From Actinomycetota bacterium (GTDB lineage: Bacteria; Actinomycetota; Actinomycetes; S36-B12): a stretch of DNA of 57,670 nt. This document shows, one piece after another, positions 44,981 to 57,670 of this stretch. Made by a program: the position numbers and the translations under genes. The DNA lies in assembly GCA_009699015.1 (NCBI GenBank), contig WLOY01000005.1:1-57670 (forward strand), given 5' to 3'. Numbering within the stretch: position 1 is the first letter of the stretch; the number at the start of each line of letters is the position of its first letter. The notes under the pieces were generated by a model. The model saw only the letters and a list, made by a program, of their open reading frames with translations, was not told where the DNA came from and searched no databases.

Positions 44981-45154
44981 ATATCGGTCAAACGGCATCG
45001 GATTCGTGCGTCTGCCCCGGAATCCGGGTGAAATGACGTGGGTGGTGGCGCTTGGCAGATAGCTACCGCAATCGGTCGGCCGCCGACTTCGACCGGTCGT
45101 CATGCCCCGTCCGATGGGCAGGACTCAAATTGATTGCTGTGGCACCGTTGTGGA

Positions 45155-48100
45155 ATGCCGGAATCTTCCGCGCCAGCCGAGGCCACTTCGCTGATGCTTG
45201 CCGCCGCCGTGGCGGAGTCGGTCGCCGACGCCGTCATCGCCTACGAGCCGGACGGCACGATCGCCTGGGCATCGCCGTCGCTCACGCCAGTGCTCGGCTG
45301 GGACCCGGCGAAGGTCATCGGAACGCGCCTGAGAATCGCGACGGATGAGGACGCGGCTAAAGCAGCGGAGATTACTGCCGAGGCCATGTCATCCGGGGCG
45401 CAGACGGCGCGCGCTCGGCTGAGGTCACGCCGCGCCGACGGGACGATCATCTGGACTGACACCCACTCGCGGCTCGTCCGCGATCCCAGCGGGACGGTGA
45501 CCTGGATCGTCGCGTCCATCCGCGATGTGACCGCAGACGTCGAGTGGCAGCGGCAGGCGATCGAGGCGGAGCAGCACTTCATGCTGGCCATGGAGCACTC
45601 CGCCGTCGGCATCGCCACCGTCGCTCCCGAGGGAGACTTCCTCACCGTGAACGACGCCCTGTGCGAAATGCTGAAACGAGATCCCGCCACGTTGCTGTCC
45701 AGCAGATGGCAGGACTTCACCCATCCGCAGGATGTCGACGTCGATCAGGGCCTCGTGAACGAACTGCTCGCAGGCGATCGCGATTCGTACCGGCTGCGCA
45801 AGCGCTACCTGTGCCCCGACGGCTCGGTCGTTTGGGGCGACCTGTCCGTCGCCGCGGTACGCGATTCGGTCGGGAAGGTGAGCTGCTTCATCTCCCAGAT
45901 CATCGACGTCACGGAGAAGGTGACGAGCGCGGAGCGGTACCGGCTCCTCGCCGAGCATGGCACCGACGTGGTGTCGACGAGCGCCCACGACTGCATGATG
46001 GAGTGGCTGTCCCCGTCGGTCGAGCAGCTGCTGGGATGGCCGGCCGGCGACTTGATCGGCACCTCCTTCCTCGCGTACCTGCATGCGGAGGACCACCCGC
46101 TCGTGGCAGCTGCCCATGATCGGGTACTCAAGGGCGAGGCGGCGAGGTTCGAGGTGCGGATGCGGACCCGCGAGCGCGGCGATCGATGGGTGAATGTCGT
46201 GCTCACTCCGATTCTCGGGGACGGCCCAGACGTCATCGGGTGCATTGCCCGTTGGCGCGATGTTCAGAGCGAGCACGAGGCCCGCGAGGAACTCGAGGCC
46301 TCCGAGCGCCGGTTCCGCATAATGGTGGAGAACGCCAGTGATGTCGTCTACTCCGCTGGTGGTGATAGGCGCGTGACGTGGGTGGCGCCCGCCGTCACGC
46401 AGACTCTCGGCTGGTCGCCCGACGAGCTCCTCGGAGTCGATCTCATTGATCTACTGCATCCCGACGACAGGGGAGCGTCTGAGCGTGTCATCGCCCATGT
46501 GCTGGCGGGCGATGACACGCCGATCACCGAAGGCGACGTTGTCGCGCGGGTCCGAACGAGGTCGAACGAGTATCGCTGGATGTCGGTGAAGCTCACCCGA
46601 TGGGCTGGCGAACCCGGCGACCCGTTGGGCATCGTCGGCGGGCTCACCCTCGTCGACGACCTCATGGAGCAACGCCTTCGCGCCCAGGCCGATGAGGAGC
46701 GGATCCAGTCGCTGCTCGACACGATGCTCGAGCCGTTCACGCTGCTCGCCGCTGAGCGGGACGACTCAGGGACGATCGTGGACTTCGTGATCGCGGAAGC
46801 CAACCACTCCGCCCTCGACGTGTACGAAATGACGCATGACGAGCTGGTCGGGCAGCGGTTCAGCGTCCTGCACCCGGCCGCCATGACGACCGGCCTGTTC
46901 GCGATGTACGCGGCCGTCGTCGATGGGGGCGAGCCGCTCTCCCTCAATGACTTGGCGTACCCGTGGGAGCCGCGAGGGGGGCAGGTCATGCGCTTCGACG
47001 TGCGTGCCGTCAAGGCCGGAGAGGCGGTGAGCCAGACATGGCGCGACGTGAGCGAGCGCTTTGCCGTGAGCGAGCTCATCGCGCGGTCGGAGGAGCACTT
47101 CAGGCTGCTCGCCGAGAACTCGACTGACGTCGTGCTGCAGGATCTCGGGGGCATCGTTCAATGGGTGTCGCCCTCCCTGACCGCCTGCCTTGGCTGGGAT
47201 TCGTCCGACTGGATTGGTCGATCGGTCAGGGGGTTCGCTCATCCCGGCGATGCCGGGCGCTTCGATGAGATCCAACCACGTACCGAGGCGAGCGAGTCGA
47301 CGATCACGACCCTGCGCCTGCGTGGCAAGAACGGCACCTACCACTGGGTCGAGATCCATGCCGGGCGCTACGCGGACGACCAAGGGAGCAGCCATGGCTT
47401 CGTCGCATCCTTTCGAGTCGTCGACCGGGAGGTCGCCGCACGCGAGGCGCTGGCAGCGGCCGAGGAGGAGTTCCGGCTCATAGCCCAGAATTCGACCGAC
47501 GTCGTCTGGCACGCCCGCAACGGCCAGATCGCCTGGATCTCGCCATCAGTGAGCGCCGTGCTCGGCGGCGAGCCAGCGGAGTGGATCGGCGTGGACATTG
47601 CCAAGATCCTGCATCCCGACGACCTGCCCGCTCACCTCGCGAGCCTGTCCGAGGCGGCCCCGGGCTCCGCGAGCGTCGTGCGAGCCAGGCTCCGGGCGAG
47701 CGACGGCACGTACCACTGGATCGACGCGAACACGGGGTCTTTCATCAATGCGCAAGGCGAGGAGGACGGCGTGATTGCCTCCTTCCGAGTCGTCGACGAT
47801 CTCGTCGCTGCCGAGGAGGAGCTGGCCTACTACGCGTGGTTCGATGCGCTCACCGGCCTCATGAACCGCAGGGAGATCTTCCACAAATTGCGGGGCATCT
47901 CGAGCGGCAATCGCGAACCGGGCGACGTGACGGCGATGCTCTTCTGCGACATCGATCGGTTCAAGGACGTCAACGATGCCTACGGCCACGCAGCCGGCGA
48001 TGAGGTGCTGCGCAGGCTGGCGGAGCGGATCAGCGCCTCAGTGCGCAGCGATGATGCGGCCGCCCGCATCGGCGGGGATGAGTTCCTCGTCGTCCTCACG

Positions 48101-48322
48101 GGCACCCACAGTCTCGATGAGGCGGTCGCCGTCGCGGAGAAGATCCGTGACGCGGCCGCCGTATCCGTGTCCGTGGACCATACGCAGGTCGTCACGTCGC
48201 TCAGCATCGGCGTGGCGCTGGTGCGCCAGGGCGAGAGCATCGGTGACCTCATCGCCCACGCGGACAAGGCGCTGTACGCGGCGAAGCGGGCCGGGCGGAA
48301 TCAGGTCGTGGCGATTGCCTAG
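45155..48322 (+). CDS. multi-PAS diguanylate cyclase
   Basis: Seven PAS/PAC-like modules, DALTGLMNR, RSDD...GGDEF. Confidence 0.92.
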   Translation: MPESSAPAEATSLMLAAAVAESVADAVIAYEPDGTIAWASPSLTPVLGWDPAKVIGTRLRIATDEDAAKAAEITAEAMSSGAQTARARLRSRRADGTIIWTDTHSRLVRDPSGTVTWIVASIRDVTADVEWQRQAIEAEQHFMLAMEHSAVGIATVAPEGDFLTVNDALCEMLKRDPATLLSSRWQDFTHPQDVDVDQGLVNELLAGDRDSYRLRKRYLCPDGSVVWGDLSVAAVRDSVGKVSCFISQIIDVTEKVTSAERYRLLAEHGTDVVSTSAHDCMMEWLSPSVEQLLGWPAGDLIGTSFLAYLHAEDHPLVAAAHDRVLKGEAARFEVRMRTRERGDRWVNVVLTPILGDGPDVIGCIARWRDVQSEHEAREELEASERRFRIMVENASDVVYSAGGDRRVTWVAPAVTQTLGWSPDELLGVDLIDLLHPDDRGASERVIAHVLAGDDTPITEGDVVARVRTRSNEYRWMSVKLTRWAGEPGDPLGIVGGLTLVDDLMEQRLRAQADEERIQSLLDTMLEPFTLLAAERDDSGTIVDFVIAEANHSALDVYEMTHDELVGQRFSVLHPAAMTTGLFAMYAAVVDGGEPLSLNDLAYPWEPRGGQVMRFDVRAVKAGEAVSQTWRDVSERFAVSELIARSEEHFRLLAENSTDVVLQDLGGIVQWVSPSLTACLGWDSSDWIGRSVRGFAHPGDAGRFDEIQPRTEASESTITTLRLRGKNGTYHWVEIHAGRYADDQGSSHGFVASFRVVDREVAAREALAAAEEEFRLIAQNSTDVVWHARNGQIAWISPSVSAVLGGEPAEWIGVDIAKILHPDDLPAHLASLSEAAPGSASVVRARLRASDGTYHWIDANTGSFINAQGEEDGVIASFRVVDDLVAAEEELAYYAWFDALTGLMNRREIFHKLRGISSGNREPGDVTAMLFCDIDRFKDVNDAYGHAAGDEVLRRLAERISASVRSDDAAARIGGDEFLVVLTGTHSLDEAVAVAEKIRDAAAVSVSVDHTQVVTSLSIGVALVRQGESIGDLIAHADKALYAAKRAGRNQVVAIA

Positions 48323-49134
48323 CGGGGGAAAGGCGGCCGCTGCGAGGGGATGAGGAGGGCGAGGCCCGCTGCGAGGCCGAGCAGGATGACTGAGACGACG
48401 CCGTCGATGATGAAGTGGTTGCCGGTCACGATGACGACCCACAGCGTGGCGAGGGGGTACAGAAGCACGAGCCAGCGCCACGGGCTGCGGACCGCGATGA
48501 TGACAATCATGGCGACGACCGCCGCCCAGGCGATGTGGACCGATGGCATGGCCGCATACTCGTTGGCGCCCGGCACGAGCGCGTACACCGACCGGCCGTT
48601 CTCGAGCGCGGTATCGACGATTCCGAGGCTGGGCAGGAGCCTGGGGGGTGCCACGGGCTTGAGCTGGATGAGCAGGCACATCGCCATCAGGAAGGCGACT
48701 GTCGTTCGGGTGAAGGCCCAGTGATCGCGGCGCATGAGGAGCACCCAGATGAGCGTGATGACGAAGACCGGGATGTGCAGGCCGGTGTAGTAGACGTCTG
48801 CGAGGTGGATGATCGCGTCGTTGCCGAGGACCGCCTGCTGGATGGCGGCCTCGCTCGGCCAGCGCAGGGCGGCCTCGAGGTCGGCGAGCCACAGGCCGGC
48901 GGCATCGGCCTGCTCGAGGCCGCCGATCGACAGCGAACCGACGTACTGCCAAGCGGCGTAGAGGCCGAGGATGAGGGCGAGTTCCCTCAAGACGAGGATC
49001 GTTGCGTCCAGGCGGGGACGGGTCTGGGCCGAGCGCCGGCGGACAAGGCTGAGGGCGAGGGAGCAGAAGGCGACGACGGCCGCGATGACGAGCGCCTGCC
49101 GCCACGGCAGCCAGCCGAGGTCTGGAAGTTCCAT
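48319..49134 (-). CDS. PAP2 superfamily (AUR1-like) membrane phosphotransferase
   Basis: PVAPPR, AAMPSVH, TGNHFIID. Confidence 0.88.
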   Translation of the reverse strand: MELPDLGWLPWRQALVIAAVVAFCSLALSLVRRRSAQTRPRLDATILVLRELALILGLYAAWQYVGSLSIGGLEQADAAGLWLADLEAALRWPSEAAIQQAVLGNDAIIHLADVYYTGLHIPVFVITLIWVLLMRRDHWAFTRTTVAFLMAMCLLIQLKPVAPPRLLPSLGIVDTALENGRSVYALVPGANEYAAMPSVHIAWAAVVAMIVIIAVRSPWRWLVLLYPLATLWVVIVTGNHFIIDGVVSVILLGLAAGLALLIPSQRPPFPR

Positions 49135-49246
49135 GACCCCACGGTAGCGATGGTCGGTGGGTCACCCCCCGAACGAATGCCGAGGCCAGAAGTCATCATG
49201 ATGCGTCAGAGGTGATGTATTGATGTTCGCAAGCACCGCTTGGGAT

Positions 49247-49483
49247 ATGCGGACGACATTGACATTGGACGATGATCTCGCCATGGCGCTGCAGGACAAG
49301 GCCCGCACCACGGGCCGGCCCTTCAAGGAGGTCGTCAATGCCTGGCTGCGCGAGGGCATCGACCTGGCGAAGGCCCTGGACCTCGTCGCGCTGGCCCTTG
49401 AATACGGCGGGACAGTCCATTCGGCCGACTCGGATTTCGCGCGGTTCCCGGACGTCCGGTGGGTAAACCCGCTGGCCTGGTAG
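49247..49483 (+). pseudogene. vapB-vapC in-frame deletion fusion
   Basis: VapB-like RHH MRTTLTLDDDL...FKEVVN joined to a PIN C-terminus ALALEYGGTVHSADSDFARFPDVRWVNPL; palindrome CATCATGATG upstream. Confidence 0.8.
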
Positions 49484-49576: not shown

Positions 49577-49987
49577 ATGAACGAGGAGACGTACACCCAG
49601 GTGATGCTCGTCGTCGCGCAGGTCTTCGAGGTCATTGCCGCCGGCGTTCTCTTCGCGGGCCTGCTGTGGTCATTGTGGATCTCGCTTCGGGACTACCGGC
49701 GGCGAAGGGACGGTGGCCTGGCCTACCGGGTCATGCGGCAGTCCTTCGGCGGCGCGATCCTGCTCGGCCTCGAGATCCTCGTTGCCGGCGACTTGATCCG
49801 CACGGTGGCCGTCGCGCCGACGCTCGACAATGTGCTCGTGCTCGGCATCATCGTCCTCATCCGCACGTTCCTGAGCTTCAGCCTCGAGATCGAGATGGAC
49901 GGGGTGCCACCGTGGCGCAAGGGACTCGTGAGCGGTGCGAGCGTGATGGCGAGGGCGGCGGCCTCCGCAAAGCCTGCGCCCGGCTAG
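49577..49987 (+). CDS. DUF1622 membrane protein
   Basis: GGAILLGLEILVAGDLIRT, IRTFLSFSLEIE. Confidence 0.88.
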   Translation: MNEETYTQVMLVVAQVFEVIAAGVLFAGLLWSLWISLRDYRRRRDGGLAYRVMRQSFGGAILLGLEILVAGDLIRTVAVAPTLDNVLVLGIIVLIRTFLSFSLEIEMDGVPPWRKGLVSGASVMARAAASAKPAPG

Positions 49988-50036
49988 TCAGGTCCATGCC
50001 TGCCCAGCGCCGCGGGCACACGCGGCGGTCGATAGT

Positions 50037-50480
50037 TCATGAACGGGATTGCCTGGACAGGTCAACCAGCGCCAGGCGATCCGACGCGGTGTAGTCGCCG
50101 CGGCCTGCGAGCCAGTACATGAACATCACCGAGAGCGGATCACTGCTATGGCCCAGTCCCATGACATGGCCGTACTCATGGGCCATGAGGCCGACCCTGT
50201 CTTCGAGGGTCATCCAGCGACTGCCCTTCGGTCTGCCCACCCGGACGCATCGGCGGGTGTCTCAAGCCAGGTGAGCGAAGCCTCGGCGATGACGCCGGAA
50301 GCCAGCAGGCCCGGGCGCTGGTCGCCGTTCTCGTAGGTGATGACGACATTGATGCCGGCGATTGTCGGGACGGCCCCCGGCACATCGGCGGCCTGGCCGG
50401 GTCGAACGTCCAGTTGATGGGGGTGGACAGTGGCCAGCGAGGGGACAGCGCCGCGGTCTTCTCGCCATTGATGAACAACT
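50037..50480 (-). pseudogene. fragmented matrixin/metzincin protease
   Basis: HEYGHVMGLGH plus Met-turn SVM in a short ORF; upstream coding-like pieces lie in other frames. Confidence 0.7.
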
Positions 50481-50534
50481 GGCTTGAGAGCTCCGCCCTG
50501 AGGGGCGGCAGTGGGCTACTGCGGCGGTGGGCGA

Positions 50535-51965
50535 CTACTGGGCGGTTGCGCAGTAGAGCGAGCGGTCACGCACCCCGCAACGGGCGAAACGGCTTCCGTC
50601 CGTTCCTTTCATGTCTAGCCGCCACGATCCGGCAGTCTCATTGGGTGTCGCCATCGCGTACCCGAATGTCACGTCGACCCATGCCCAGCTGGGCATGGGG
50701 TAGGTCTTGCCCTCACCGACGGTGTAGGCCGTGGTCGGCAGGGAGTAGCCGATCGTGGGATCGAGTTCGGTCCCGGCGTTGCCGAGGATGAGCTGGCCCG
50801 GCTGCCCGGGCAACTGCACCGCCTGCGCGAGGTGCTGGTGCGAGGAGAAGATCATGTCGTACGAATCGAGCAGGCCGTAGGCGGCGGCGCCCTGGTCATA
50901 CGACGACCATTGGCTGAAGGGCTGGCCCGGCGTGGCGAAGACCGTGGGCAGGATCCCGAAGATCGGTCGGTGGGTGACGAGCCACGATTCGCGTCCGGCC
51001 CGTGGCGCGGTCAGCGCGGCGGCCTTGGCGTATGCGGGGCGCTGGATGGCGGCATAGGCTTCGACGACGGCATCGTTGCCTCCGGCGGAATCGACGACGG
51101 CAAGGCGCAGGGTGCGACCAGTGGTCACCGGCAGGTCGATTGCGTAGGTGTCACTCGGCAGCGTCGGCGCGGCGGTGAGCGTGCCATTCACGTCGATGGG
51201 CGCGCACGCGCCCGAAGTGCCCTCCCGCGGATCGAGGAAGTAGAAGTAGCCGTTGCCGCCGCGGTAGCAGGCCTCGTGGTTGCCGCGAATGGCGACGAGG
51301 GGAGCGACGCTGAGCATGGGGGCCATCGGGAGGAAGGCATCCGCGAGCCAGCCGTAGGCGCTGTCGGTGAACGGCATGCCGGTCACCGGCGAGGGGCTCG
51401 ACCCGCAGAGCGCCTGGTCGGCTGCCGGGCAGGGGGCCTCGCGGTAGAAGTAGTCGCCGTTCATGATGATCGCGTCGGGACGCTCCTTGGCGATCTCGCT
51501 CGCGATCCGGGCCAGCGGCCATTCGTCGGGGTCGGCGCAGTCCTGAACCTGCCGAGCGGAGATGCGACAGCCGCTGTCGCCCATCAGCGCCAGCCGGGTC
51601 GTCCGTGCCGGCATCCGAGCGGGGATGGGGCGCCCCTCGATGGACGCGCTTACCGAGCCTCGCGGCATGACCGATGAGCACACGGTCAGGGAGTCGAATG
51701 CGGGGGAGGTGCGAGCGGGCCGTGGGCGTTCGCGCATCGTGATCGACCGGGTGGCACCGCCAACGGACGTGACGTCGAGGGTGGGGCAGTCGACGCCGGC
51801 GGCGACGATCGCGCGGGCGACGAGGCCCGACGGCGCGGTCGAAATCGGAGCCGCGATCGAGTAGGCCGCGATTGCGGACGAGGACACCGCGGCTTGCGCG
51901 GGAAGCGCGGCTGAGCCGACACCAACCGCGATGATGAGCAATGCAACTGCACCGGCGTTCTGCAT
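50535..51965 (-). CDS. secreted calcineurin-like metallophosphoesterase
   Basis: Signal peptide, GDSGCR, GDYFYRE, RGNHE, THRP, SHQH. Confidence 0.88.
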   Translation of the reverse strand: MQNAGAVALLIIAVGVGSAALPAQAAVSSSAIAAYSIAAPISTAPSGLVARAIVAAGVDCPTLDVTSVGGATRSITMRERPRPARTSPAFDSLTVCSSVMPRGSVSASIEGRPIPARMPARTTRLALMGDSGCRISARQVQDCADPDEWPLARIASEIAKERPDAIIMNGDYFYREAPCPAADQALCGSSPSPVTGMPFTDSAYGWLADAFLPMAPMLSVAPLVAIRGNHEACYRGGNGYFYFLDPREGTSGACAPIDVNGTLTAAPTLPSDTYAIDLPVTTGRTLRLAVVDSAGGNDAVVEAYAAIQRPAYAKAAALTAPRAGRESWLVTHRPIFGILPTVFATPGQPFSQWSSYDQGAAAYGLLDSYDMIFSSHQHLAQAVQLPGQPGQLILGNAGTELDPTIGYSLPTTAYTVGEGKTYPMPSWAWVDVTFGYAMATPNETAGSWRLDMKGTDGSRFARCGVRDRSLYCATAQ

Positions 51966-52213
51966 GGCCTTCACTTGCTCGTCTCCGATCCGAGGCGACC
52001 CGACTGCTTGGCTTGAAGCAGGATCGTACCTTGGCGGGCTTTGCAGTAGCCGCGGAGTCGCTGGCGCAATTGCCGGTCGCGCTTGGTCCTGACATCGCAC
52101 GCGAACCGAGGGGATCCCTTGGCGTCGAATGCTGTGGTAGCGCCAATTTCGCCGAGGGTTCGTCTCCAGCCCGTAGGCTCCGAGGCGGGCGGACGAAGGG
52201 CGGTGCGGCGAGC

Positions 52214-53812
52214 ATGCAATTGACTGAGGTGGAGGCGATCCGCCGGGGCCGCACGCGGCACCTGTTCGCCCTGCAGGGGGACCTGAGTCTGATCGATGCT
52301 GATGCGCACCTGATACCCACTGACTCCTACGGCAGCGTCGAGGACCACTGGGCGTGGGCGGTAGGTGTCGACCGCGACGGCCGGACCCGTCAACTTCGTC
52401 GGGAGGAGCGGCTCCTCGAGGCCGAAGGCCACGCCTGGGTGGACGAGGCCCCGGCCGGGCCGGTGCTCGCGGTCAACGTTGCCGGGGGCAACAGCGACAA
52501 CGATGTCCCTTCGATGATCCGCCGGCTCGGGGCTTGCTTCGAGGCTCTGGGGGAGCGGGGCCTGCCGACTCGATTCCGTTCCCGGCCTCTCGTGGCCATG
52601 CCGCTCGTCGGGGTCGGGCGAGCGGGTCTCGGCGGGCGCACCGGCGAGGTCATCGCCTCGCTCCTCGACGCAATCGGCGATCACTTCGACCGAAGTCCCG
52701 CCGGCGGCTTCGACCTCGTCATCGTCACGCGAGACTCCAGCAGCATCGCCGCCCTGCAGCATGAGCGCCGCGCGCGTTTCAGCGCGACGTCAACGGGGGT
52801 GGTCCCGGACTGGCTTGAAAAGGTGGTCGCGGCGGGCCGGGCAGGGGAGTTGGCCGTCATGTTCGGGGCGGGTGCGAGCGCGGCCCTCGGCCTGCCGATG
52901 TGGGATGAGCTGCTCAGGAAACTGGTGCAGTCACTCGATGATCCCGAGCTCAGCCGGATGGACCTTACGGGCCTGGACCCCACCGATGCGGCGACCCTGC
53001 TCATCGAGGCCGGTGGCAGCGGCTGGTTCAGCGATGCGCTCGTCCGCCTGCTGGCCACGCCACGCCATTCCCTCACGCATGGGCTCATCGCTAACTTCCG
53101 TTGCCCGCTCACCGTCACGACGAACTACGACCAAGCGTTCGAACTGGCAGCGGAATCGATCACCGGATCACCGGTTGCAGTCCTGCCGTGGGATGAGGAT
53201 TCCGGCGCCGGCACTCGGGTTCTGAAGCTCCACGGCGATCTCACGAGGGGGCAGCTGGTCTTGTCCCGCGACCAGTTCGTCGCCATGCATGCGTTCCGCC
53301 GGCCCCTGGCCGGAGTGCTGCAGTCCAGGATGCTCATCGGTCACCTGCTTGCCGTCGGCACGTCGATGAGCGATTCAACCCTCGTCCATGCGGCGGAGGA
53401 GTTCCGTGCGCTCATCGCGCAAACGCAGCAGGCGAAGACGCCGCAGGGCGAGCGGGCCGGCGAGGTGCGGGCGGGAACGGTTGTCCTCACCACGTCGGAC
53501 CCGGCGCGGGTGCGGTTGCTCGATCGGGCCTTCACGGTGGTTGAGGGAGATGCGGAACTCGGGGTGCGCGAGTCGGCGCGCGATGTTGACGTGCTGCTCG
53601 ACTGGATCGCCATGCAGGAGTCGAGCGACCTGTCATTCGCCCTCGATGCCCGCTACCGTGCGCTTCTCTCGCCGGCCGATCAGAATCTCGCCGCGCGGCT
53701 CATGTCGCTCGCGGGCGCTGAAGATCATCAGTCGCGCCTTCGGTCATCAGTGGAGGCCTACCTTTCATCGCTTGGAGCCAATGGCGTCGCCCCCTCTTCG
53801 ACGATCGGCTGA
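52214..53812 (+). CDS. macrodomain-like plus SIR2-like fusion protein
   Basis: N-terminal GDLSLIDADAHLIPTD and AMPLVGVGRAG; C-terminal FGAGAS...LPMW, TTNYD, LKLHG, VGTSMSD. Confidence 0.82.
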   Translation: MQLTEVEAIRRGRTRHLFALQGDLSLIDADAHLIPTDSYGSVEDHWAWAVGVDRDGRTRQLRREERLLEAEGHAWVDEAPAGPVLAVNVAGGNSDNDVPSMIRRLGACFEALGERGLPTRFRSRPLVAMPLVGVGRAGLGGRTGEVIASLLDAIGDHFDRSPAGGFDLVIVTRDSSSIAALQHERRARFSATSTGVVPDWLEKVVAAGRAGELAVMFGAGASAALGLPMWDELLRKLVQSLDDPELSRMDLTGLDPTDAATLLIEAGGSGWFSDALVRLLATPRHSLTHGLIANFRCPLTVTTNYDQAFELAAESITGSPVAVLPWDEDSGAGTRVLKLHGDLTRGQLVLSRDQFVAMHAFRRPLAGVLQSRMLIGHLLAVGTSMSDSTLVHAAEEFRALIAQTQQAKTPQGERAGEVRAGTVVLTTSDPARVRLLDRAFTVVEGDAELGVRESARDVDVLLDWIAMQESSDLSFALDARYRALLSPADQNLAARLMSLAGAEDHQSRLRSSVEAYLSSLGANGVAPSSTIG

Positions 53813-54084
53813 ACGAGGTCGCCGCCGGGCGGAGAATGGCCGGCGATGTAGGCCGCGAGCAGCACTGTGACATCAATCAGTGGCGCGAACGTGGTTCTTA
53901 GGCATGTGTGTCCGGCGGGCTCGCTGGCGGAGTCGGGGTGGCTGGGATCTCTGAGCTGTGCGGGGGAGCATGACGAAGCGTGATGAGATGACCGTGTTTC
54001 CACGGTAGTGCCGGGGGCCTCGACCCAATAGTCTGCAATTACTTGCACGATGATGGGACGAAGTCCCGGTGAGGCTCGGCCCTA

Positions 54085-54219
54085 ATGAGTGCACGCAGCA
54101 GTCTTTTCAGTGTTTTCGGTTCACGTTCAGCCAGCGGAAAGGCCGCTTGCGCGGTCATCGCATGCGCGGTGTTGCTCCTGACGGCCTGCGGTGGCAGTGG
54201 GGTTGGCTGCGCCTGCTAG
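54085..54219 (+). pseudogene. truncated lipoprotein remnant
   Basis: MSARSS...AVLLLTACGGSG stops a few codons after the lipobox, about 100 bp from the IS end. Confidence 0.45.
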
Positions 54220-54323
54220 CAGCGTCCCGTCTGGCGCGGGCACGACGGCAAAAGGCGTCGAGGTCCCCGAGAGTGCTCCAACTGTTCGCCTGCCCACTAT
54301 TCCCGATCCCGGTGTCCCGCTTC

Positions 54324-54858
54324 GCCTGAATCCACCGATGGGTGACGCGTTTTGGGCCTGATCGTCGTGTTGGTCCGTGTGCGGTTGGTGAGCGTGGTGG
54401 TATTGCCGCTGATGACTTTCCCGGGATGTTCAACGTGATGTTGGGTCGGGCCGGGGGTTCGGCGGCGGGTGGATGGGGGCGCAGCCCTTGAGGTCGGCGG
54501 TGACCTGCTCGATGATGGCGTGACCGCGATGTTTTTTGTCCGCGGCCACGGTGTCCATCTAGTCTGCGGGGACGGTGGCGCTGACCCGCGCCCCGCCTTT
54601 CACGGCGGCAAGGAGGGTCGGGCGGCCGTAGTGCGCGGAGTCGGCGCGCAGGAGGACCATCCCAGTCGCGCCGGTGGACCGCAGCCTGCGAACGGTTCCA
54701 AGAGCGTCGGTGGTTTCGGGTCATCAAATGCTGCACTGATCGCGGCCGGGGAAACAGATAGTTGTATCTGCGGGGTGTCCTTCGATCTTGCCGGAATGGA
54801 ACCGTCGGCAAGTTCGCTTTTCCAGCATTTGCGATGAAACCCATCGGTGCATCCAGGC
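54324..54858 (-). mobile_element. internally deleted IS1380-family element
   Basis: 20-bp terminal inverted repeats (18/20 match); transposase fragments QLSVSPAAISAAFDDP, VLLRADSAHYG, HRGHAIIEQVTADLK. Confidence 0.85.
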
Positions 54859-54869
54859 TTAATGAGTAT

Positions 54870-55577
54870 TCACTGACTCGAAACCGATTTCATTCGTCTA
54901 TTCAGAACGGCACCTGTCGCAAAGGACGCCAAGATGATGGCGAGGAACATCAGGCATCCGCCGACCGTTCCGATGCCCACGGAGGTCGCGGGGTCAGTTG
55001 GGCACATTCCCAGGCCGCAATCCGGCAGCACCCCGATGCCCAACATCGCAAGGTTCAGTGTGATCCACGTGATGATTGCGATCGTGAACAGGCGTAGCCA
55101 ACCTCGTTCTCGCAGCACCCCAGTGTCACCGGCCTCGAACTGCCCCTTGAATAGCAGCAAGATGGCACATCCGACAATACCGGTCGCGAAGGTGATGAAG
55201 GCCCACGTGTAGAGGTGAAATCCGAAGACAACGGGGCCGTGACCGGGGTCATCTGGGTTGGCAATGTGCAAAAGGATCTGGCAGACGCTGCCGGCAGCAC
55301 CCACGCACGCAGCCAGAATGCTCACTCCGTAGTGAGACGGCCTCATGCCCCACAGCAGGTTCATCATCGGGCCAACGGCAAGGCCGAACATGGCTGATCG
55401 CTGAATAAGGAAGAGCGCGCACGGCATCTCCCCCATCGCAAACTCAAACCAAAGCAAGACACCCAGAACTACCAGCAAACCAAGGAGGGCGGCCAGATTC
55501 AGCAACCGCATGATGAATACATCACGAATGTTCACGCGTGCAAAATGCCTCGTCACGCTCATATTCAATTTGCCCAC
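54870..55577 (-). CDS. DsbB-like disulfide bond formation protein, CxxC degenerate
   Basis: MPCALFLIQR, HYG, QILLHI, GFHLYTWAF, C-x3-CP; AT-richer DNA. Start uncertain. Confidence 0.75.
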   Translation of the reverse strand: MGKLNMSVTRHFARVNIRDVFIMRLLNLAALLGLLVVLGVLLWFEFAMGEMPCALFLIQRSAMFGLAVGPMMNLLWGMRPSHYGVSILAACVGAAGSVCQILLHIANPDDPGHGPVVFGFHLYTWAFITFATGIVGCAILLLFKGQFEAGDTGVLRERGWLRLFTIAIITWITLNLAMLGIGVLPDCGLGMCPTDPATSVGIGTVGGCLMFLAIILASFATGAVLNRRMKSVSSQ

Positions 55578-55586
55578 CGATATCGA

Positions 55587-55736
55587 CTAAAAGTTAAGGG
55601 GAATGGGGTTGGTCATGTGCAACTTGAGCAGCACGAGCGTCCAGACCAGGGTGAGCAAGGTGACAGGAATAACCCAGCGCTTGCGAAGGAATATTCCTAC
55701 GTAAACAACGGCCCACAGCAGGAACATCGAGAACAT
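55587..55736 (-). CDS. DUF5993-like small membrane protein
   Basis: Two TM segments ending HMTNPIPLNF; sits directly upstream of the DsbB-like gene. Confidence 0.6.
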   Translation of the reverse strand: MFSMFLLWAVVYVGIFLRKRWVIPVTLLTLVWTLVLLKLHMTNPIPLNF

Positions 55737-55821
55737 CACGGTTCGAATGTTGTCGGTTGCATGCGCAATTTGCAAATGTTGCGAGGAGATTCATGAAGAG
55801 TGCCCGCGAAATCCATTCCGC

Positions 55822-55955
55822 GCCTCACGTAGGAATGACCGCGTAACGGCGATCATTGTTGGGCATGGAGAACGGGCTGTCGATGACGTCTCGCGTCGAC
55901 GTCACTACGAGGTACGCCAAGGCGTAAGTGGAGGCTGCGAAGGGGAAAAGGGGCA
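55822..55955 (+). mobile_element. IS left-end stub with transposase N-terminus (integrase-core/ISNCY-like)
   Basis: GCCTCACGTAGGAATG end-like motif, then MENGLSMTSRVDVTTRYAKA*VEAAKG with an internal stop. Confidence 0.5.
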
Positions 55956-56187
55956 GCGCTGCAGTTACTGGAAAACCCGCCCTCCGGGGTGAAGTGGGGC
56001 CGTCTGCGCTTGGGGCTACCGGCCCCGGTGGTGGCTTGGTGTTCCACGTCTCGTTGTCACCTGTCACGAGCACCGGTTCGGCGTGCGGGACCTCGTGCTT
56101 CTAGTTGGAGCCTGTGGACCGCTCGTGGGCCGGCGGGCGGTCAGGGCCGCCGTGCGTATTCCCGAAAACGGTGGCAAAATCTTGCAG

Positions 56188-56793
56188 GTGGGAAGAAAGC
56201 TGGACCCGGATGAGGCTGCGGCGGTGATGCGCGCTGCCGGGATGGAGCCGCTCGCCCCCTATCCGGGCAGTGCCCGCCGGTGGGAATGCCGCTGCGGTCG
56301 CTGCGGGCGGGTCGTCTATCCGGAGCACAGGGCCGTCAGGAGTGGCCAGGGAGGTTGTGCCTTCTGCGGGCGAGCGGACGCTCTTGCCGCCCTGAGAGTC
56401 GACCCGGAGAGAGCGGTCCGGGTGATGCTGGGGGTCGGCCTTCGCCCGCTTGAGCCATACACGACCAGCAAGGCCACGTGGCGGTGCGAATGCCTGACGT
56501 GCGGCGAGATCGTCGTCTCGATGTACTGCTTGGGGCAGCAGGGGCGGGGCTGCCCCGACTGCGGCCGGAAGAGGGGGGCGGCTAAGCGCCGCTTCAGCCA
56601 TGAGTTCGCGGCCGAAGCCATGCGTGCCGCGGGCCTCGAGCCGCTGGAGCCGTACCCGGGAACGATGTTGAAATGGCGGTGCACCTGCGTGTCGTGCGGG
56701 GAGGAGGTTGAGACAACGCGCTCCAAGGTCATCTCGAGCGGCCTCGGTTGCCCCCGCTGTGCCTTGCCGAAGACGACGCCGGCGCAAGGCTGA
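56188..56793 (+). CDS. protein of three tandem Cys-rich zinc-ribbon repeats
   Basis: 3x [VM/AM..G.(E/R)PL.PY....W.C.C..CG...GC..C]. Confidence 0.8.
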   Translation: MGRKLDPDEAAAVMRAAGMEPLAPYPGSARRWECRCGRCGRVVYPEHRAVRSGQGGCAFCGRADALAALRVDPERAVRVMLGVGLRPLEPYTTSKATWRCECLTCGEIVVSMYCLGQQGRGCPDCGRKRGAAKRRFSHEFAAEAMRAAGLEPLEPYPGTMLKWRCTCVSCGEEVETTRSKVISSGLGCPRCALPKTTPAQG

Positions 56794-56906: not shown

Positions 56907-57670
56907 TCATGCCACCGTTCTTGTGCCACCCGAGGCCGGTATCGCACTGCGAGCGGACGGATGGCTCGCACCTGCCGCGAAGCGGTTGCGGCCCCCGGAC
57001 TTCGCCGCGTACAGGGCGTGGTCAACCCTGCCTAGCCATGAATCCCGGTCATCGTCAGGCCAGAGTTCGGCGACGCCGATGCTCACGGTGACCCGCCCCA
57101 CGTCATCGAACGGCTCGTCCGCGACGAGGTCGCAGGTCTTTCGGGCGAGCGAGCGTGCCCCGGCGATGTCGCAGTGCGGGGTCACGATGATGAATTCCTC
57201 GCCGCCCCAGCGGGCGAGCGAATCCATGCCACGCAGGTTCTTGGCGAGCCGACTCGTGATGTCTATGAGCAGTTGATCGCCCGCCTCATGCCCGTAGGTG
57301 TCGTTCACCGCCTTGACATGGTCGATGTCCAGCATGAGGAGGGCCATCGGGGTCCCGTATCGGTGTGCTTCCAACAGGCTGGAGGCGAGCACCCGCTCAC
57401 CCTGCCTGCGGTTCCAGGCTCCCGTCAGCGGATCGGTGACCGACAGTTGCTCAAGCTCCTGGGTCACTTCCCTGAGCGCGGCGTACGCCGAGGCAACCTC
57501 ATCACGGGACTGCCTGAGTTGAACCTCCGCCCGCTTGCGCTCGCTGATATCGCGCGTGATGCCGAGAATCTGGTTGATGCGCCCATCCGAGTCGGCAGTC
57601 GGGATCACCTCGACCTCAGTCCAGATGGTGGAGCCGTCCTTGCAGTAGTACTCCTCCTCGCAGGTGAACC
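56907..57670 (-). CDS. PAS/PAC-GGDEF diguanylate cyclase (5' part outside window)
   Basis: PAC GITRDISERK, DPLTGAWNR, RGMD...GGEEF. Confidence 0.9.
   Translation of the reverse strand, partial: FTCEEEYYCKDGSTIWTEVEVIPTADSDGRINQILGITRDISERKRAEVQLRQSRDEVASAYAALREVTQELEQLSVTDPLTGAWNRRQGERVLASSLLEAHRYGTPMALLMLDIDHVKAVNDTYGHEAGDQLLIDITSRLAKNLRGMDSLARWGGEEFIIVTPHCDIAGARSLARKTCDLVADEPFDDVGRVTVSIGVAELWPDDDRDSWLGRVDHALYAAKSGGRNRFAAGASHPSARSAIPASGGTRTVA

Follow-up and report, generated by a model that had tools for sequence, protein, structure and literature searches.

Macro-SIR2 fusion proteins of Actinomycetota as candidate NADases gated by an ADP-ribose-type ligand

What might a protein that fuses a macro domain to a SIR2 domain do for a bacterium, and does it belong to any known defense system? 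One such gene, here called Macro-SIR2, lies in a 57,670-nucleotide stretch of actinobacterial DNA (the window). The gene, its parts, and its upstream neighbor are as follows (positions in the window).

50535-52100, minus strand: metallophosphoesterase gene, a neighbor of Macro-SIR2
52101-52213, no strand assigned: divergent intergenic region and presumed promoter, read from the sequence between the metallophosphoesterase gene and the Macro-SIR2 start
52214-53812, plus strand: Macro-SIR2 coding sequence, 532 amino acids plus stop (translation of the open reading frame, start from homolog alignment, dN/dS)
52256-52789, plus strand: predicted macro domain, macroH2A-like, residues ~15-192 (profile against PDB sequences, AlphaFold2, Foldseek)
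52796-53488, plus strand: predicted SIR2_2 catalytic domain of the ThsA/KomC/DSR2 type, residues ~195-425 (Pfam, PADLOC, profile, Foldseek, invariant columns)
53489-53788, plus strand: predicted C-terminal strand-plus-helix extension, residues ~426-525 (AlphaFold2 secondary structure and pLDDT, conserved columns)

In the list of open reading frames, the longest frame at this locus runs from 51941 to 53812 (623 amino acids); the start at 52214, which gives 532 amino acids, agrees with the N-termini of full-length homologs in the alignment. Because dN/dS is 0.15-0.19 against four orthologs, in both domains, we consider the gene to be functional and under purifying selection. With its frame intact as well, we rejected the idea that it is a decayed remnant. 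The AlphaFold2 model of the full-length protein (pLDDT 91, pTM 0.92) is a soluble body of two domains, with the macro domain packed against the SIR2 domain. The N-terminus is polar, as judged from the translation and from the model. A complex prediction with two copies of residues 15-514 scored 0.01 ("no answer"), which is neutral on self-association.

The initial annotation described the N-terminus as macro-like, and the motifs that it quoted are all present: LQGDLSLIDADAHLIPTD spans residues 20-37, and AMPLVGVG spans residues 128-135. The fold check that it proposed bore out the macro fold. Specifically, the AlphaFold model of residues 1-192 has a pLDDT of 84.8 and gave 173 Foldseek matches in the PDB at E ≤ 0.001; the top macro-domain matches were macroH2A, YmdB, PARP9/14, MacroD2, and Af1521 (TM 0.62-0.71, E from ~1e-8 to 1e-6). 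A profile of the family's N-terminal region matched macroH2A macro domains among PDB sequences (E = 1.3e-7). Model and profile together confirm a three-layer alpha/beta/alpha macro fold, as predicted from sequence. Pfam's Macro model (PF01661) did not match Macro-SIR2 at E ≤ 1, and no macro structure of ThsA was among the fold matches listed. By both profile and modeled fold, the domain is closest to the macroH2A-like class, whose members are described as non-catalytic binders (Shi et al. 2024).

Within the macro domain, the columns conserved in the family include D30, P35, W46, P130, G133, G144, D167, A180, Q182, and R185. Some of them can be compared with the ADP-ribose (ADPr) pocket of macroH2A1.1. 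D30 is conserved and aligns with the adenine-contacting aspartate of macroH2A; the second glycine-rich loop, PxxGxGxGG (P130, G133, G135, G138), is also conserved and aligned to macroH2A. The first loop, which is GGxxG in macroH2A1.1, aligns to V42-A47, where W46 is invariant and there is no conserved pair of glycines. The stretch around this tryptophan thus stands in place of the first loop of classical ADPr-binding macro domains, so that the ligand is perhaps something other than plain ADPr, whose binding is not assured. A role as a sensor is a reasonable one to predict for this domain.

The initial annotation was also accurate in reporting an intact SIR2 domain that lacks zinc-binding CxxC pairs. 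The motifs FGAGAS (residues 217-222, with GAGAS at 218-222), TTNYD (302-306), and KLHGD (338-342, with KLHG at 338-341) are all intact, and N304 (codon at 53123-53125), H340 (codon at 53231-53233), and G218/G220 are invariant across the 53 sequences of the family alignment. The 532 residues contain just two cysteines, C108 and C296, which rules out a CxxC pair. Pfam's SIR2_2 (PF13289) matched residues 300-403 with 55.8 bits, as compared to a cutoff of 24.5 (E = 6.9e-15); SIR2 (PF02146) did not match. The family profile matched ThsA (E = 1.1e-31), KomC (6.8e-28), and DSR2 (2.4e-22), which are established experimentally as NADases and are the closest relatives of this domain, consistent with the initial annotation's comparison to NAD-depleting effectors. 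The top Foldseek matches for the SIR2 part agree with the profile and are NADase effectors, including DSR2 and KomC. The motifs around N304 and H340 align with the same motifs of ThsA in HMMER alignments; in ThsA, the asparagine of TTNYD and the histidine of KLHG are the catalytic residues. By these similarities, the domain is predicted to be of the NAD+ glycohydrolase type; it has no zinc module. PADLOC's models for ThsA matched the SIR2 part (E = 1.8e-12), with residues 201-406 aligned to positions 10-216 of the 478 in the model, but no PADLOC model matched along the full length of the protein, and NCBIfam's SIR2_antiphage (NF042942) scored 12.6 bits, below its cutoff of 500. The C-terminal extension lies outside the Pfam match; it is kept throughout the family (G421/T422, L462/D463, and LLDxRY), and profile alignments to KomC extend to profile position 423-445. 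It possibly has a role in assembly or regulation.

The domain assignments bear on an alternative that we consider unlikely, namely that the SIR2 domain transfers ADP-ribose to macromolecules, that the macro domain joined to it recognizes or erases the mark in cis, as in SirTM/macro or DarT/DarG pairs, and that linked ARG (ADP-ribosylglycohydrolase), phosphatase, and Nudix genes process the same mark. Protein-ADP-ribosylating pairs of sirtuins and macro domains are described as established (PMC9503650, PMC12700824), and 8rsn, the structure of a fungal macro-fused SirTM, was among the fold matches for the macro domain. However, the SIR2_2 domain is nearest to hydrolytic NADases, while canonical and SirTM-type sirtuins matched the family profile only at E ~0.1, over ~30 residues. 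Similarly, the macro domain is nearest to a non-catalytic class, and the positions that align to the catalytic loop of MacroD-type enzymes are not conserved across the family.

Within the window, Macro-SIR2 stands alone, without a TIR or other signal-making partner. There is no ADPr-related gene adjacent to it, and the ARG-centric operon of this genome is on another contig (C231), unlinked to Macro-SIR2. As the initial annotation had noted, there is no TIR nearby, and a search of the 92.6%-complete genome with PF13676 (TIR_2) and PF08937 (ThsB_TIR) gave no match. The annotation's view of the surroundings as debris of toxin-antitoxin (TA) systems and insertion sequences is plausible, by eye, for the former; it could not be confirmed for the latter, with no match to a transposase among the 10 neighboring open reading frames that were scanned. 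The putative TA remnant is an open reading frame at 49220-49483, in which an antitoxin N-terminus seems to be joined to a PIN C-terminus and which has no Pfam match. There are no tRNA genes around Macro-SIR2 and no long repeats, only short ones at chance level, and positions 51800-54400 contain no consensus for a sigma-70-like promoter or an intrinsic terminator. Relative to close kin, the locus is rich in insertions and deletions, and synteny with the kin ends at the 3' end of the gene.

These results make it very unlikely that Macro-SIR2 is a Thoeris-like effector that answers an ADPR-derived signal from a TIR protein encoded elsewhere in the genome, as the initial annotation had suggested. 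The similarity of the SIR2 domain to ThsA, more than to any other protein, would fit such a role, as would the macro domains of type II Thoeris, which are described as receiving a TIR-made signal. But besides the absence of TIR matches in this genome, the 25 commonest Pfam families in a set of 150 neighbors of family members (described below) include no TIR family, the STALD/SLOG domain of Pfam did not match Macro-SIR2 at E ≤ 1, and no transmembrane (TM) segment is apparent. With no sign of SLOG or a TM segment and no TIR match in the 92.6%-complete genome, the protein was ruled out as a member of Thoeris.

Nor is the protein a rare chimera, as it had first seemed. At E ≤ 1e-30, the family comprises 374 representatives; nearly all of them come from Actinomycetota, and they are named solely "SIR2 family protein." An Atlas cluster named "Macro/SIR2-like domain-containing protein" holds this architecture, and in a neighboring Atlas cluster of Macro/SIR2-like proteins, 99% of members have PF01661. 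The combination of macro and SIR2 is also mentioned in an Extended Data legend of PMC12700824. Among the literature matches listed, no title or abstract indicated a study devoted to the fusion, and supplementary tables may list it. Macro-SIR2 thus represents a large actinobacterial family whose architecture is catalogued but uncharacterized.

The distribution of the family is uneven. We found Macro-SIR2 in at least 9 of 301 genomes from the class and at least 54 of 101 genomes of Geodermatophilaceae; none of 5 genomes from the window's own family had it among the candidates scored. These counts are lower bounds because the scoring covered a subset of the first-look candidates (34 per genome for Geodermatophilaceae and 11 per genome for the class). 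In the largest clade (27 rows), synteny with DUF1206, P450, and UvrD-like helicase genes is conserved and GC3 is native, so this clade looks vertically inherited rather than island-borne. At most of the 45 loci outside Geodermatophilaceae, the neighbors are unique to the locus. Overall, the family has no universal partner gene and is mostly stand-alone and patchy. Members from Myxococcota and other non-actinobacterial groups are nested within the family tree, which is from a quick LG+G4 search, has several long branches, and includes only the 81 rows of 420 amino acids or more. In Rhodococcus, Gordonia, and some Nocardioidaceae loci, Macro-SIR2 has a lower GC3 than any other gene of its locus. 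We did not find a foreign codon signature that was consistent over the loci: the median GC3 difference to neighbors, which were themselves pre-selected through a GC3 threshold, is +0.006, and it is negative at 33 of 76 loci. A search of 50,697 phage records gave no copy, and 72,556 plasmid records contained no full-length copy, only partial matches to the SIR2 domain.

The initial annotation had proposed to look near homologs for TIR, ART (ADP-ribosyltransferase), and restriction-modification genes, and for enrichment near defense or mobile genes. Defense-type genes are present, including NERD-UvrD, Zorya, ABC-ATPase/HTH, and HNH genes, but each of the classical ones was seen at just one locus among the 150 neighbors, so enrichment is weak, and the largest clade has housekeeping-like synteny. 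The neighbor scans omitted 31 synteny-sharing Geodermatophilaceae loci, four close kin of the window (L002-L005), open reading frames of ≥800 or ≤80 amino acids, and the two shortest of the 152 that remained. Genes at these loci were called by a crude GC3-based choice of open reading frames, which at first pass missed the SIR2 gene at 13 of 80 loci; the SIR2 gene itself was placed by tblastn. Separately, we observed that the ortholog at locus L001 has a TGA inside its frame.

What the initial annotation had not foreseen was that the recurrent association, by both neighborhood and fusion, would be with ADP-ribose-processing operons of NrtR, ARG, and ARPP genes. Two subclades of Macro-SIR2 flank NrtR/ARG-phosphatase/ARPP-1 operons. 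NrtR and/or ARG-phosphatase lies within 10 kb of Macro-SIR2 at 8 of 80 loci, which are spread over several families; at locus L061, an NrtR gene with the same orientation is located 19 bp upstream. Of the 14 ARPP-1-positive genomes, 6 have a separate Geodermatophilaceae paralog at a distance of 3.7-5.1 kb from ARPP-1, and genome G386 is a further case of linkage to ARG-type genes. In addition, there are longer members of the family that carry REase-ARP/PDDEXK, TY-Chap2, HD_4, OGG-like, or DUF6946 domains as fusions. The ARG-centric components are described as a conflict system that is predicted to counter ADP-ribosylation (Iyer, Burroughs, Anantharaman, Aravind 2022, Viruses 14:1977; PMC9503650); the defensive role of these systems is itself a prediction. 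The same source describes them as defined by the lack of a coupled sirtuin or ART. Obligatory coupling to Macro-SIR2 was ruled out. In the class sample, ARPP-1 is present in 9 of 301 genomes and overlaps with the Macro-SIR2 carriers (at least 9 of 301) only in genome G000, which is no genome-wide co-occurrence, and ARG-phosphatase is in just one of five carriers. For the transferase alternative above, the adjacency and fusion to ADPr-removing and ADPr-processing genes would complete a set of writer, reader, and eraser, but ARG-phosphatase and ARPP-1 are missing from most carriers.

We also considered whether Macro-SIR2 might regulate NAD+/ADP-ribose homeostasis in housekeeping or under stress, with no antiviral role: NAD+ would be trimmed under feedback from ADPr, in co-regulation with NrtR regulons. 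This seems improbable to us, even with the purifying selection, the conserved gene order and native codon usage that we see in Geodermatophilaceae, where more than half of the genomes carry it, and the lack of phage and full-length plasmid copies in the records searched all pointing toward it. NrtR-type regulators are described as sensing ADPr and, classically, as regulating NAD metabolism (PMC9503650), which gives the NrtR gene at L061 some weight here. On the other hand, the family is very patchy outside of that one family of bacteria, GC3 looks foreign in several lineages, non-actinobacterial members are nested in the tree, some members are fused to nucleases (REase-ARP/PDDEXK) or lie beside the defense-type genes named above, and the characterized close SIR2_2 relatives are all immune NADases.

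To us, the best explanation, although a tentative one with a little less than an even chance of being correct, is that Macro-SIR2 is an autonomous NADase that is gated by an ADP-ribose-type ligand and acts within an ADP-ribose conflict network. The macro domain would be a non-catalytic sensor, and its ligand would be free ADPr, a derivative of ADPr, or an ADP-ribosylated macromolecule, arising when an invader consumes NAD+ or ADP-ribosylates host targets. Binding would free or assemble the SIR2 domain, much as SLOG does in ThsA, and the activated domain would convert NAD+ to ADPr and nicotinamide. Loss of NAD+ would starve the invader, including its ADP-ribosyltransferases, and force the cell to arrest. 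In genomes with an NrtR/ARG/phosphatase operon, such as the one on contig C231 here, the NrtR repressor, which senses ADPr, could be a further target of the ADPr released. Both the NADase activity and the ligand binding are ascribed by analogy to relatives. The patchy distribution, the low GC3 in several lineages, the break in synteny at the 3' end of the gene, and the links to the ADPr network all favor this explanation; the stable synteny of the largest clade and the lack of phage or full-length plasmid copies in the records searched go against a role in defense.

A more specific version, which strikes us as quite unlikely, is that Macro-SIR2 is the NAD+-consuming "alarm generator" thought to be missing from the ARG-centric systems. 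Here the macro domain would read host macromolecules modified by an invader's ART, or their breakdown products, and the SIR2 domain would turn the NAD+ pool into ADPr, thereby starving the transferase and lifting the repression by NrtR of the ARG/phosphatase/chaperone/nuclease operon. If so, free ADPr would be a bacterial immune second messenger that requires neither a TIR nor a cyclase.

SIR2 NADases are among the most common bacterial immune effectors, and each one studied senses infection in its own way, whether through a signal made by a TIR, the tail protein of a phage, Argonaute bound to its guide, or dITP. If the macro domain is the sensor, then ADP-ribose chemistry itself would be a new class of input. 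Many phages ADP-ribosylate host proteins, and Macro-SIR2 could explain how cells detect this. Through the linkage and fusions to NrtR/ARG/ARPP genes, systems that are so far pure predictions would also gain an enzymatic partner that can be tested. The family is abundant in a phylum whose defense systems are under-explored, and the human SIR2_2 relatives FAM118A/B widen the interest of any regulatory principle.

How does Macro-SIR2 compare to known systems? ThsA from type I Thoeris (SIR2-SLOG) is its best SIR2 relative by sequence and fold, with the same TTNYD asparagine and KLHG histidine, and likewise has a nucleotide-binding sensor fused to a SIR2 NADase. However, the sensor of ThsA is a C-terminal SLOG domain, whereas the predicted sensor of Macro-SIR2 is an N-terminal macro domain, and ThsA has a ThsB/TIR partner, which Macro-SIR2 lacks both beside the gene and in its (92.6% complete) genome. 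In type II Thoeris, ThsA (TM-macro) is described as having a non-catalytic macro domain that receives a TIR-made, ADPR-type signal (PMC11204291; bioRxiv 10.64898/2025.12.03.692087). Although Macro-SIR2 would share the use of a macro domain to receive a ligand, that ThsA has a membrane-spanning segment and a TIR partner instead of a soluble SIR2 domain with no TIR found, and the macro domain of Macro-SIR2 is nearest to macroH2A among the fold matches listed.

DSR2 and KomC (Kongming) share the SIR2_2 catalytic clade with Macro-SIR2, but both are without a macro domain. DSR2, too, consists of a single gene and brings its own sensor: it senses a phage tail-tube protein via a C-terminal domain of ~700 amino acids. 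At ~1000 amino acids with that large sensor, DSR2 differs from the 532-residue Macro-SIR2, and the alignment is limited to the SIR2 part (profile positions 184-396). According to the titles of structure entries, KomC, a bare SIR2 domain, was solved with dITP and KomB.

In the macrodomain-linked sirtuins (SirTM) and the fused Mfs1, a sirtuin-fold enzyme is also paired or fused with a macro domain, but SirTMs are described as ADP-ribosyltransferases that act on proteins and belong to another sirtuin class (PMC12700824): they are class-M sirtuins of the canonical type, to which the SIR2_2 domain of Macro-SIR2 is barely similar (E ~0.1). Finally, although most carriers of Macro-SIR2 lack the ARPP-1 and ARG-phosphatase of the ARG-centric systems, and the window has no neighborhood of ARG with Nudix/WYL genes, two subclades of the family do flank operons of NrtR, ARG-rhodanese-phosphatase, ARPP-1, TY-Chap, vWA, and HD genes.

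The longest open frame containing Macro-SIR2 starts at 51941 (623 amino acids) and in that form would overlap the divergent gene at 50535-52100. Full-length homologues begin where the ATG at 52214 falls, which gives a protein of 532 amino acids (52214-53812, plus strand). Every motif quoted in the initial annotation is found in its translation, which contains two cysteines and, as had been stated, no zinc-binding CxxC pair. Macro-SIR2 is an autonomous gene, and it is under purifying selection: among orthologues that are 72-92% identical, dN/dS is 0.15-0.19 in both domains. One orthologue, from a related MAG of Nanopelagicales (L001:10001-11608), contains an internal TGA; it has probably been frameshifted or otherwise broken.

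The C-terminal half has a SIR2 fold with intact catalytic residues. Its Pfam match is SIR2_2 (PF13289; residues 300-403, E = 6.9e-15, 55.8 bits versus a cutoff of 24.5), and no other family reaches E ≤ 1 in the 532-residue protein. An AlphaFold2 model, built with 53 homologues as input, has a pLDDT of 91.0 and a pTM of 0.92, and its top Foldseek matches in the PDB are exclusively SIR2 NADase effectors (KomC, ThsA, and DSR2; E = 5e-9 to 1e-7). When a family profile was compared to PDB sequences, the SIR2 matches were ThsA (E = 1.1e-31), KomC (6.8e-28), DSR2 (2.4e-22), FAM118B (1.6e-6), and canonical sirtuins (about 0.1); its N terminus matched macroH2A1.1 (1.3e-5). In the 53-sequence alignment, the invariant columns of this half are G218, G220, T302-D306 (including N304), K338, H340, and G341. 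The NCBIfam model SIR2_antiphage gives 12.6 bits, short of its cutoff of 500.

One alternative is that Macro-SIR2 is a Thoeris-type effector that answers a distant TIR protein. The best PADLOC matches are indeed two ThsA models (1.8e-12 and 1.6e-10), both of which align model positions 10-216 (of 478) with residues 201-406 and so cover the SIR2 half alone. The initial annotation noted no TIR gene nearby, and this extends to the entire genome assembly (280 contigs, 92.6% complete), which has no match to TIR_2 or ThsB_TIR. We consider this alternative very improbable. The same genome encodes a second SIR2_2 protein, which lacks a macro domain (contig C222, L086:7419-8726, 435 amino acids, E = 2.5e-23); its gene lies about 0.8 kb downstream of a cytidine-deaminase-like gene.

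The N-terminal half, proposed from its motifs to be a macro domain, is confirmed to have a macro fold, which the Pfam Macro model misses (that model has no match anywhere in the 92.6% complete genome). A profile from a separate alignment of 40 N-terminal domains matches the macro domains of macroH2A (1.3e-7 and 5.7e-6) and, at 0.024, the macro-like TTHA0132. Folded separately (pLDDT 84.8), the domain resembles macroH2A1.1/1.2/2, YmdB, the macro domains of PARP9 and PARP14, MacroD2, and Af1521 (TM 0.62-0.71), and 173 PDB chains match it at E ≤ 0.001.

The invariant columns of the macro half (53-sequence alignment) are W46, P130, G133, G144, D167, A180, and R185. D30 is nearly invariant and aligns, according to HMMER, with the macroH2A aspartate that contacts adenine in the structure of macroH2A1.1 with ADP-ribose (ADPr). 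In the HMMER alignments, the PxxGxGxGG loop corresponds to the second Gly-rich loop of macroH2A, whereas in place of the first there is another stretch, which ends in an invariant Trp. Thus, the ligand pocket is only partly classical. The positions aligned with the catalytic loop of MacroD are not conserved in the family (53-sequence alignment), and the nearest class, macroH2A, consists of binders according to Shi et al. (2024); the macro domain is therefore probably noncatalytic. The macro domain of the fungal macro-fused SirTM is likewise among the fold matches (TM 0.62-0.71), which would suit an ADP-ribosyltransferase that acts as writer and eraser in cis; given the unconserved MacroD loop, we think this unlikely. 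Our preferred reading, which falls a little short of an even chance, is that the macro domain would bind an ADPr-type ligand and that binding would, by analogy with SLOG in ThsA, switch on the predicted SIR2 NADase.

Macro-SIR2 belongs to a large family. A word-indexed search identified 104 relatives, about 500-560 amino acids long, that cover the whole length and come from Modestobacter, Actinomycetospora, Oerskovia, and Rhodococcus; they are named solely "hypothetical" or "SIR2 family protein." An exhaustive search of representative proteins gave 1,714 at E ≤ 1e-3 and 374 at E ≤ 1e-30, and 126 of the 150 matches listed include the macro half (alignment from query residue 31 or earlier). The ESM Atlas contains the family too, and a neighboring cluster, automatically named "Macro/SIR2-like domain-containing protein," has 85 members (PF13289 in 100%, PF01661 in 99%). 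A genome scan yielded at least 600 stretches, at least 286 of which encode relatives; the 80 loci that we kept are nearly all from Actinomycetota, with a few labeled Myxococcota or otherwise. With a macro-domain profile, and scoring part of the first-look candidates, carriers are at least 54 of 101 genomes of Geodermatophilaceae and at least 9 of 301 genomes sampled across the class (including the window's genome, two partial matches, and one match with a stop); none of the five genomes from the window's own family had a match. Phage records had no match, and the 207 plasmid records with a match aligned to the SIR2 domain alone, with none covering 80% of the query.

In a quick tree of 81 rows, with several long branches, the window's protein belongs to a small clade that sits on a long branch. 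The other three groups are a Geodermatophilaceae clade (27 members), a second Geodermatophilaceae clade (6), and a mixed clade (30) of Nocardioidaceae, Cellulomonadaceae, Promicromonosporaceae, Gordoniaceae, and others. Sequences from Myxococcota are nested within the actinobacterial ones. GC3 is native in Geodermatophilaceae and is the lowest of the locus at several Rhodococcus, Gordonia, and Nocardioidaceae loci; in the window it is 0.78, versus 0.85-0.92 in the genes to the left. No consistent shift was found across all loci.

In the window, Macro-SIR2 is preceded, in order, by PAS-GGDEF, PAP2, a vapBC-like remnant, DUF1622, a matrixin fragment, and a metallophosphoesterase, and is followed by a low-GC block with a DsbB-like gene, a Zn-ribbon protein, and a second PAS-GGDEF gene.

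Features around Macro-SIR2 in the window
45134-48322, plus strand: PAS-GGDEF diguanylate-cyclase gene, absent in kin L004 and L001
49220-49483, plus strand: 87 amino acids; reads like a vapBC deletion remnant, with a ribbon-helix-helix antitoxin N terminus joined directly to a PIN C-terminal end; no Pfam match at E ≤ 0.01
50037-50240, minus strand: matrixin-type Zn-metalloprotease fragment, 67 amino acids (Peptidase_M10, 4.7e-7)
50535-52100, minus strand: metallophosphoesterase, 521 amino acids, signal-peptide-like N terminus
About 53836-56568: low-GC block (GC 0.565-0.62 versus about 0.68)
54324-54343 and 54839-54858: 20-nt inverted repeat, in the low-GC block
54870-55577, minus strand: DsbB-like membrane protein, in the low-GC block
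55587-55775, minus strand: small transmembrane ORF, in the low-GC block
56083-56793, plus strand: repeated CxxC zinc-ribbon protein, 236 amino acids; weak match to the CapR homology domain (E = 1.1e-5, 26 bits versus a cutoff of 24.2)
56907-57668, minus strand: PAS-GGDEF diguanylate-cyclase gene

The DUF1622-Macro-SIR2 pair is conserved in close kin. The blocks 45019-49174 and 49959-52194 are absent from L001, and the latter is absent from all of L001-L003, where DUF1622 abuts Macro-SIR2. Synteny of L001 with the window stops at the 3' end of Macro-SIR2. In L003, the sequence after the SIR2 gene resumes at window position 56568, so the low-GC block (about 53836-56568) looks inserted. No tRNA genes or long repeats were found around Macro-SIR2, and the insertion sequence debris described there was not borne out, as none of 10 neighboring ORFs matched a transposase. 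The two PAS-GGDEF genes flank the region, and their GGDEF ends form a 50-nt inverted match (70%). Three of the kin (L002, L003, and L005) are titled as Bifidobacterium breve MAGs, a label that looks wrong (62-65% GC); they carry orthologues that are 71-84% identical, with the DUF1622 neighbor.

Neighbors of homologues were called with a crude GC3-based script and then clustered. In the 27-member clade, a single gene order is conserved (two DUF1206 genes, Macro-SIR2, P450, and then a UvrD-like helicase on the opposite strand), which looks like vertical inheritance. Such stable inheritance would fit a housekeeping NAD+/ADPr regulator, an explanation that seems improbable to us. Outside that clade, the majority of neighbors were seen at one locus each, so Macro-SIR2 has no universal partner. 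At 45 other loci, a Pfam scan of 150 ORFs lying no more than two genes away from SIR2 most often gave NrtR_WHD (5), DUF3558 (3), and WYL (3), followed by ARPP-1, ADP_ribosyl_GH, TY-Chap1/3, and NUDIX (2 each). Neither TIR nor restriction-modification genes, which had been envisaged as neighbors, were among the top 25 families. PADLOC identified WYL (3) and UvrD/GajB-like helicases in this set, along with matches at single loci to ZacA/ZacB, PDC-S11, PsyrA, ShosA, PD-T4-3, a methyl-directed REase, and DRT-like helicases. At L006:1853-3897, in the lineage sister to the window's clade, a pair of WYL regulator genes (WYL+WCX, PafBC-like) comes after Macro-SIR2; genes of these two clusters recur at the ARG-linked loci L019 and L068 of Nocardioides.

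Macro-SIR2 is recurrently linked and fused to ADPr-processing conflict genes. NrtR and/or a fusion of ADP-ribosylglycohydrolase (ARG) with a DSPc phosphatase lies within 10 kb at 8 of the 80 loci (from Friedmanniella, Nocardioides, Marmoricola, Knoellia, Actinotalea, and two MAGs). These loci also contain vWA (six), TY-Chap (three), or ARPP-1 (two), in differing gene orders. All of these are parts of the "ARG-centric" systems, which Iyer et al. (2022) predicted to counter viral ADP-ribosylation. ARPP-1 in Geodermatophilaceae is a second, independent linkage to ARG-type genes: it is present in 14 of 101 genomes, 11 of which also have Macro-SIR2, and in 6 of the 14 (G030, G071, G065, G046, G039, and G011) ARPP-1 has a divergent paralogue of Macro-SIR2 3.7-5.1 kb away. 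The fetched loci begin with NrtR, then ARPP-1 and the ARG-phosphatase, and continue with HD_4, HNH, DUF4268, or unknown small genes before a convergent Macro-SIR2. The six paralogues form their own clade in the 81-row tree; three of them are near-identical, so they represent about four independent lineages. Fused genes point the same way: in a scan of 10 members of the family that are longer, the partners are HD_4 phosphatase (two) and, once each, a C-terminal PDDEXK_13/REase-ARP nuclease, an N-terminal TY-Chap2, an OGG-like domain, DUF6946, and a tandem SIR2_2.

In the window's genome, NrtR, ARPP-1, and ARG-DSPc are together on another contig (C231). That operon (L085:2835-11780) adjoins a MazG-like gene and a gene for a 1,087-amino-acid HIT-PLD-ResIII helicase; beyond NrtR the contig continues for just about 0.6 kb, so further components may be unassembled. 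Across the class sample, Macro-SIR2 (at least 9 of 301) and ARPP-1 (9 of 301) overlap solely in the window's genome, and one of five carriers tested has ARG-phosphatase, so the coupling is facultative. In one sampled genome (G386), ARG-phosphatase is 5 kb from Macro-SIR2. Most family members, including the window's, must function alone. The boldest reading, which we regard as quite doubtful, is that Macro-SIR2 would make free ADPr that would both starve a viral ADP-ribosyltransferase and induce NrtR-repressed ARG operons.

We found no study of the macro-SIR2 fusion in the literature, by name or by broader terms (supplementary tables were outside the scope of the search); the sole mention that we found is a figure legend according to which a Macro domain occurs in some SIR2_2 members (PMC12700824). 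Iyer et al. (2022, section 3.8) define ARG-centric systems by their lack of a coupled sirtuin or ART. Judging from its sequence, Macro-SIR2 is a candidate SIR2 NADase effector in which both the putative sensor domain and the genomic association are new.
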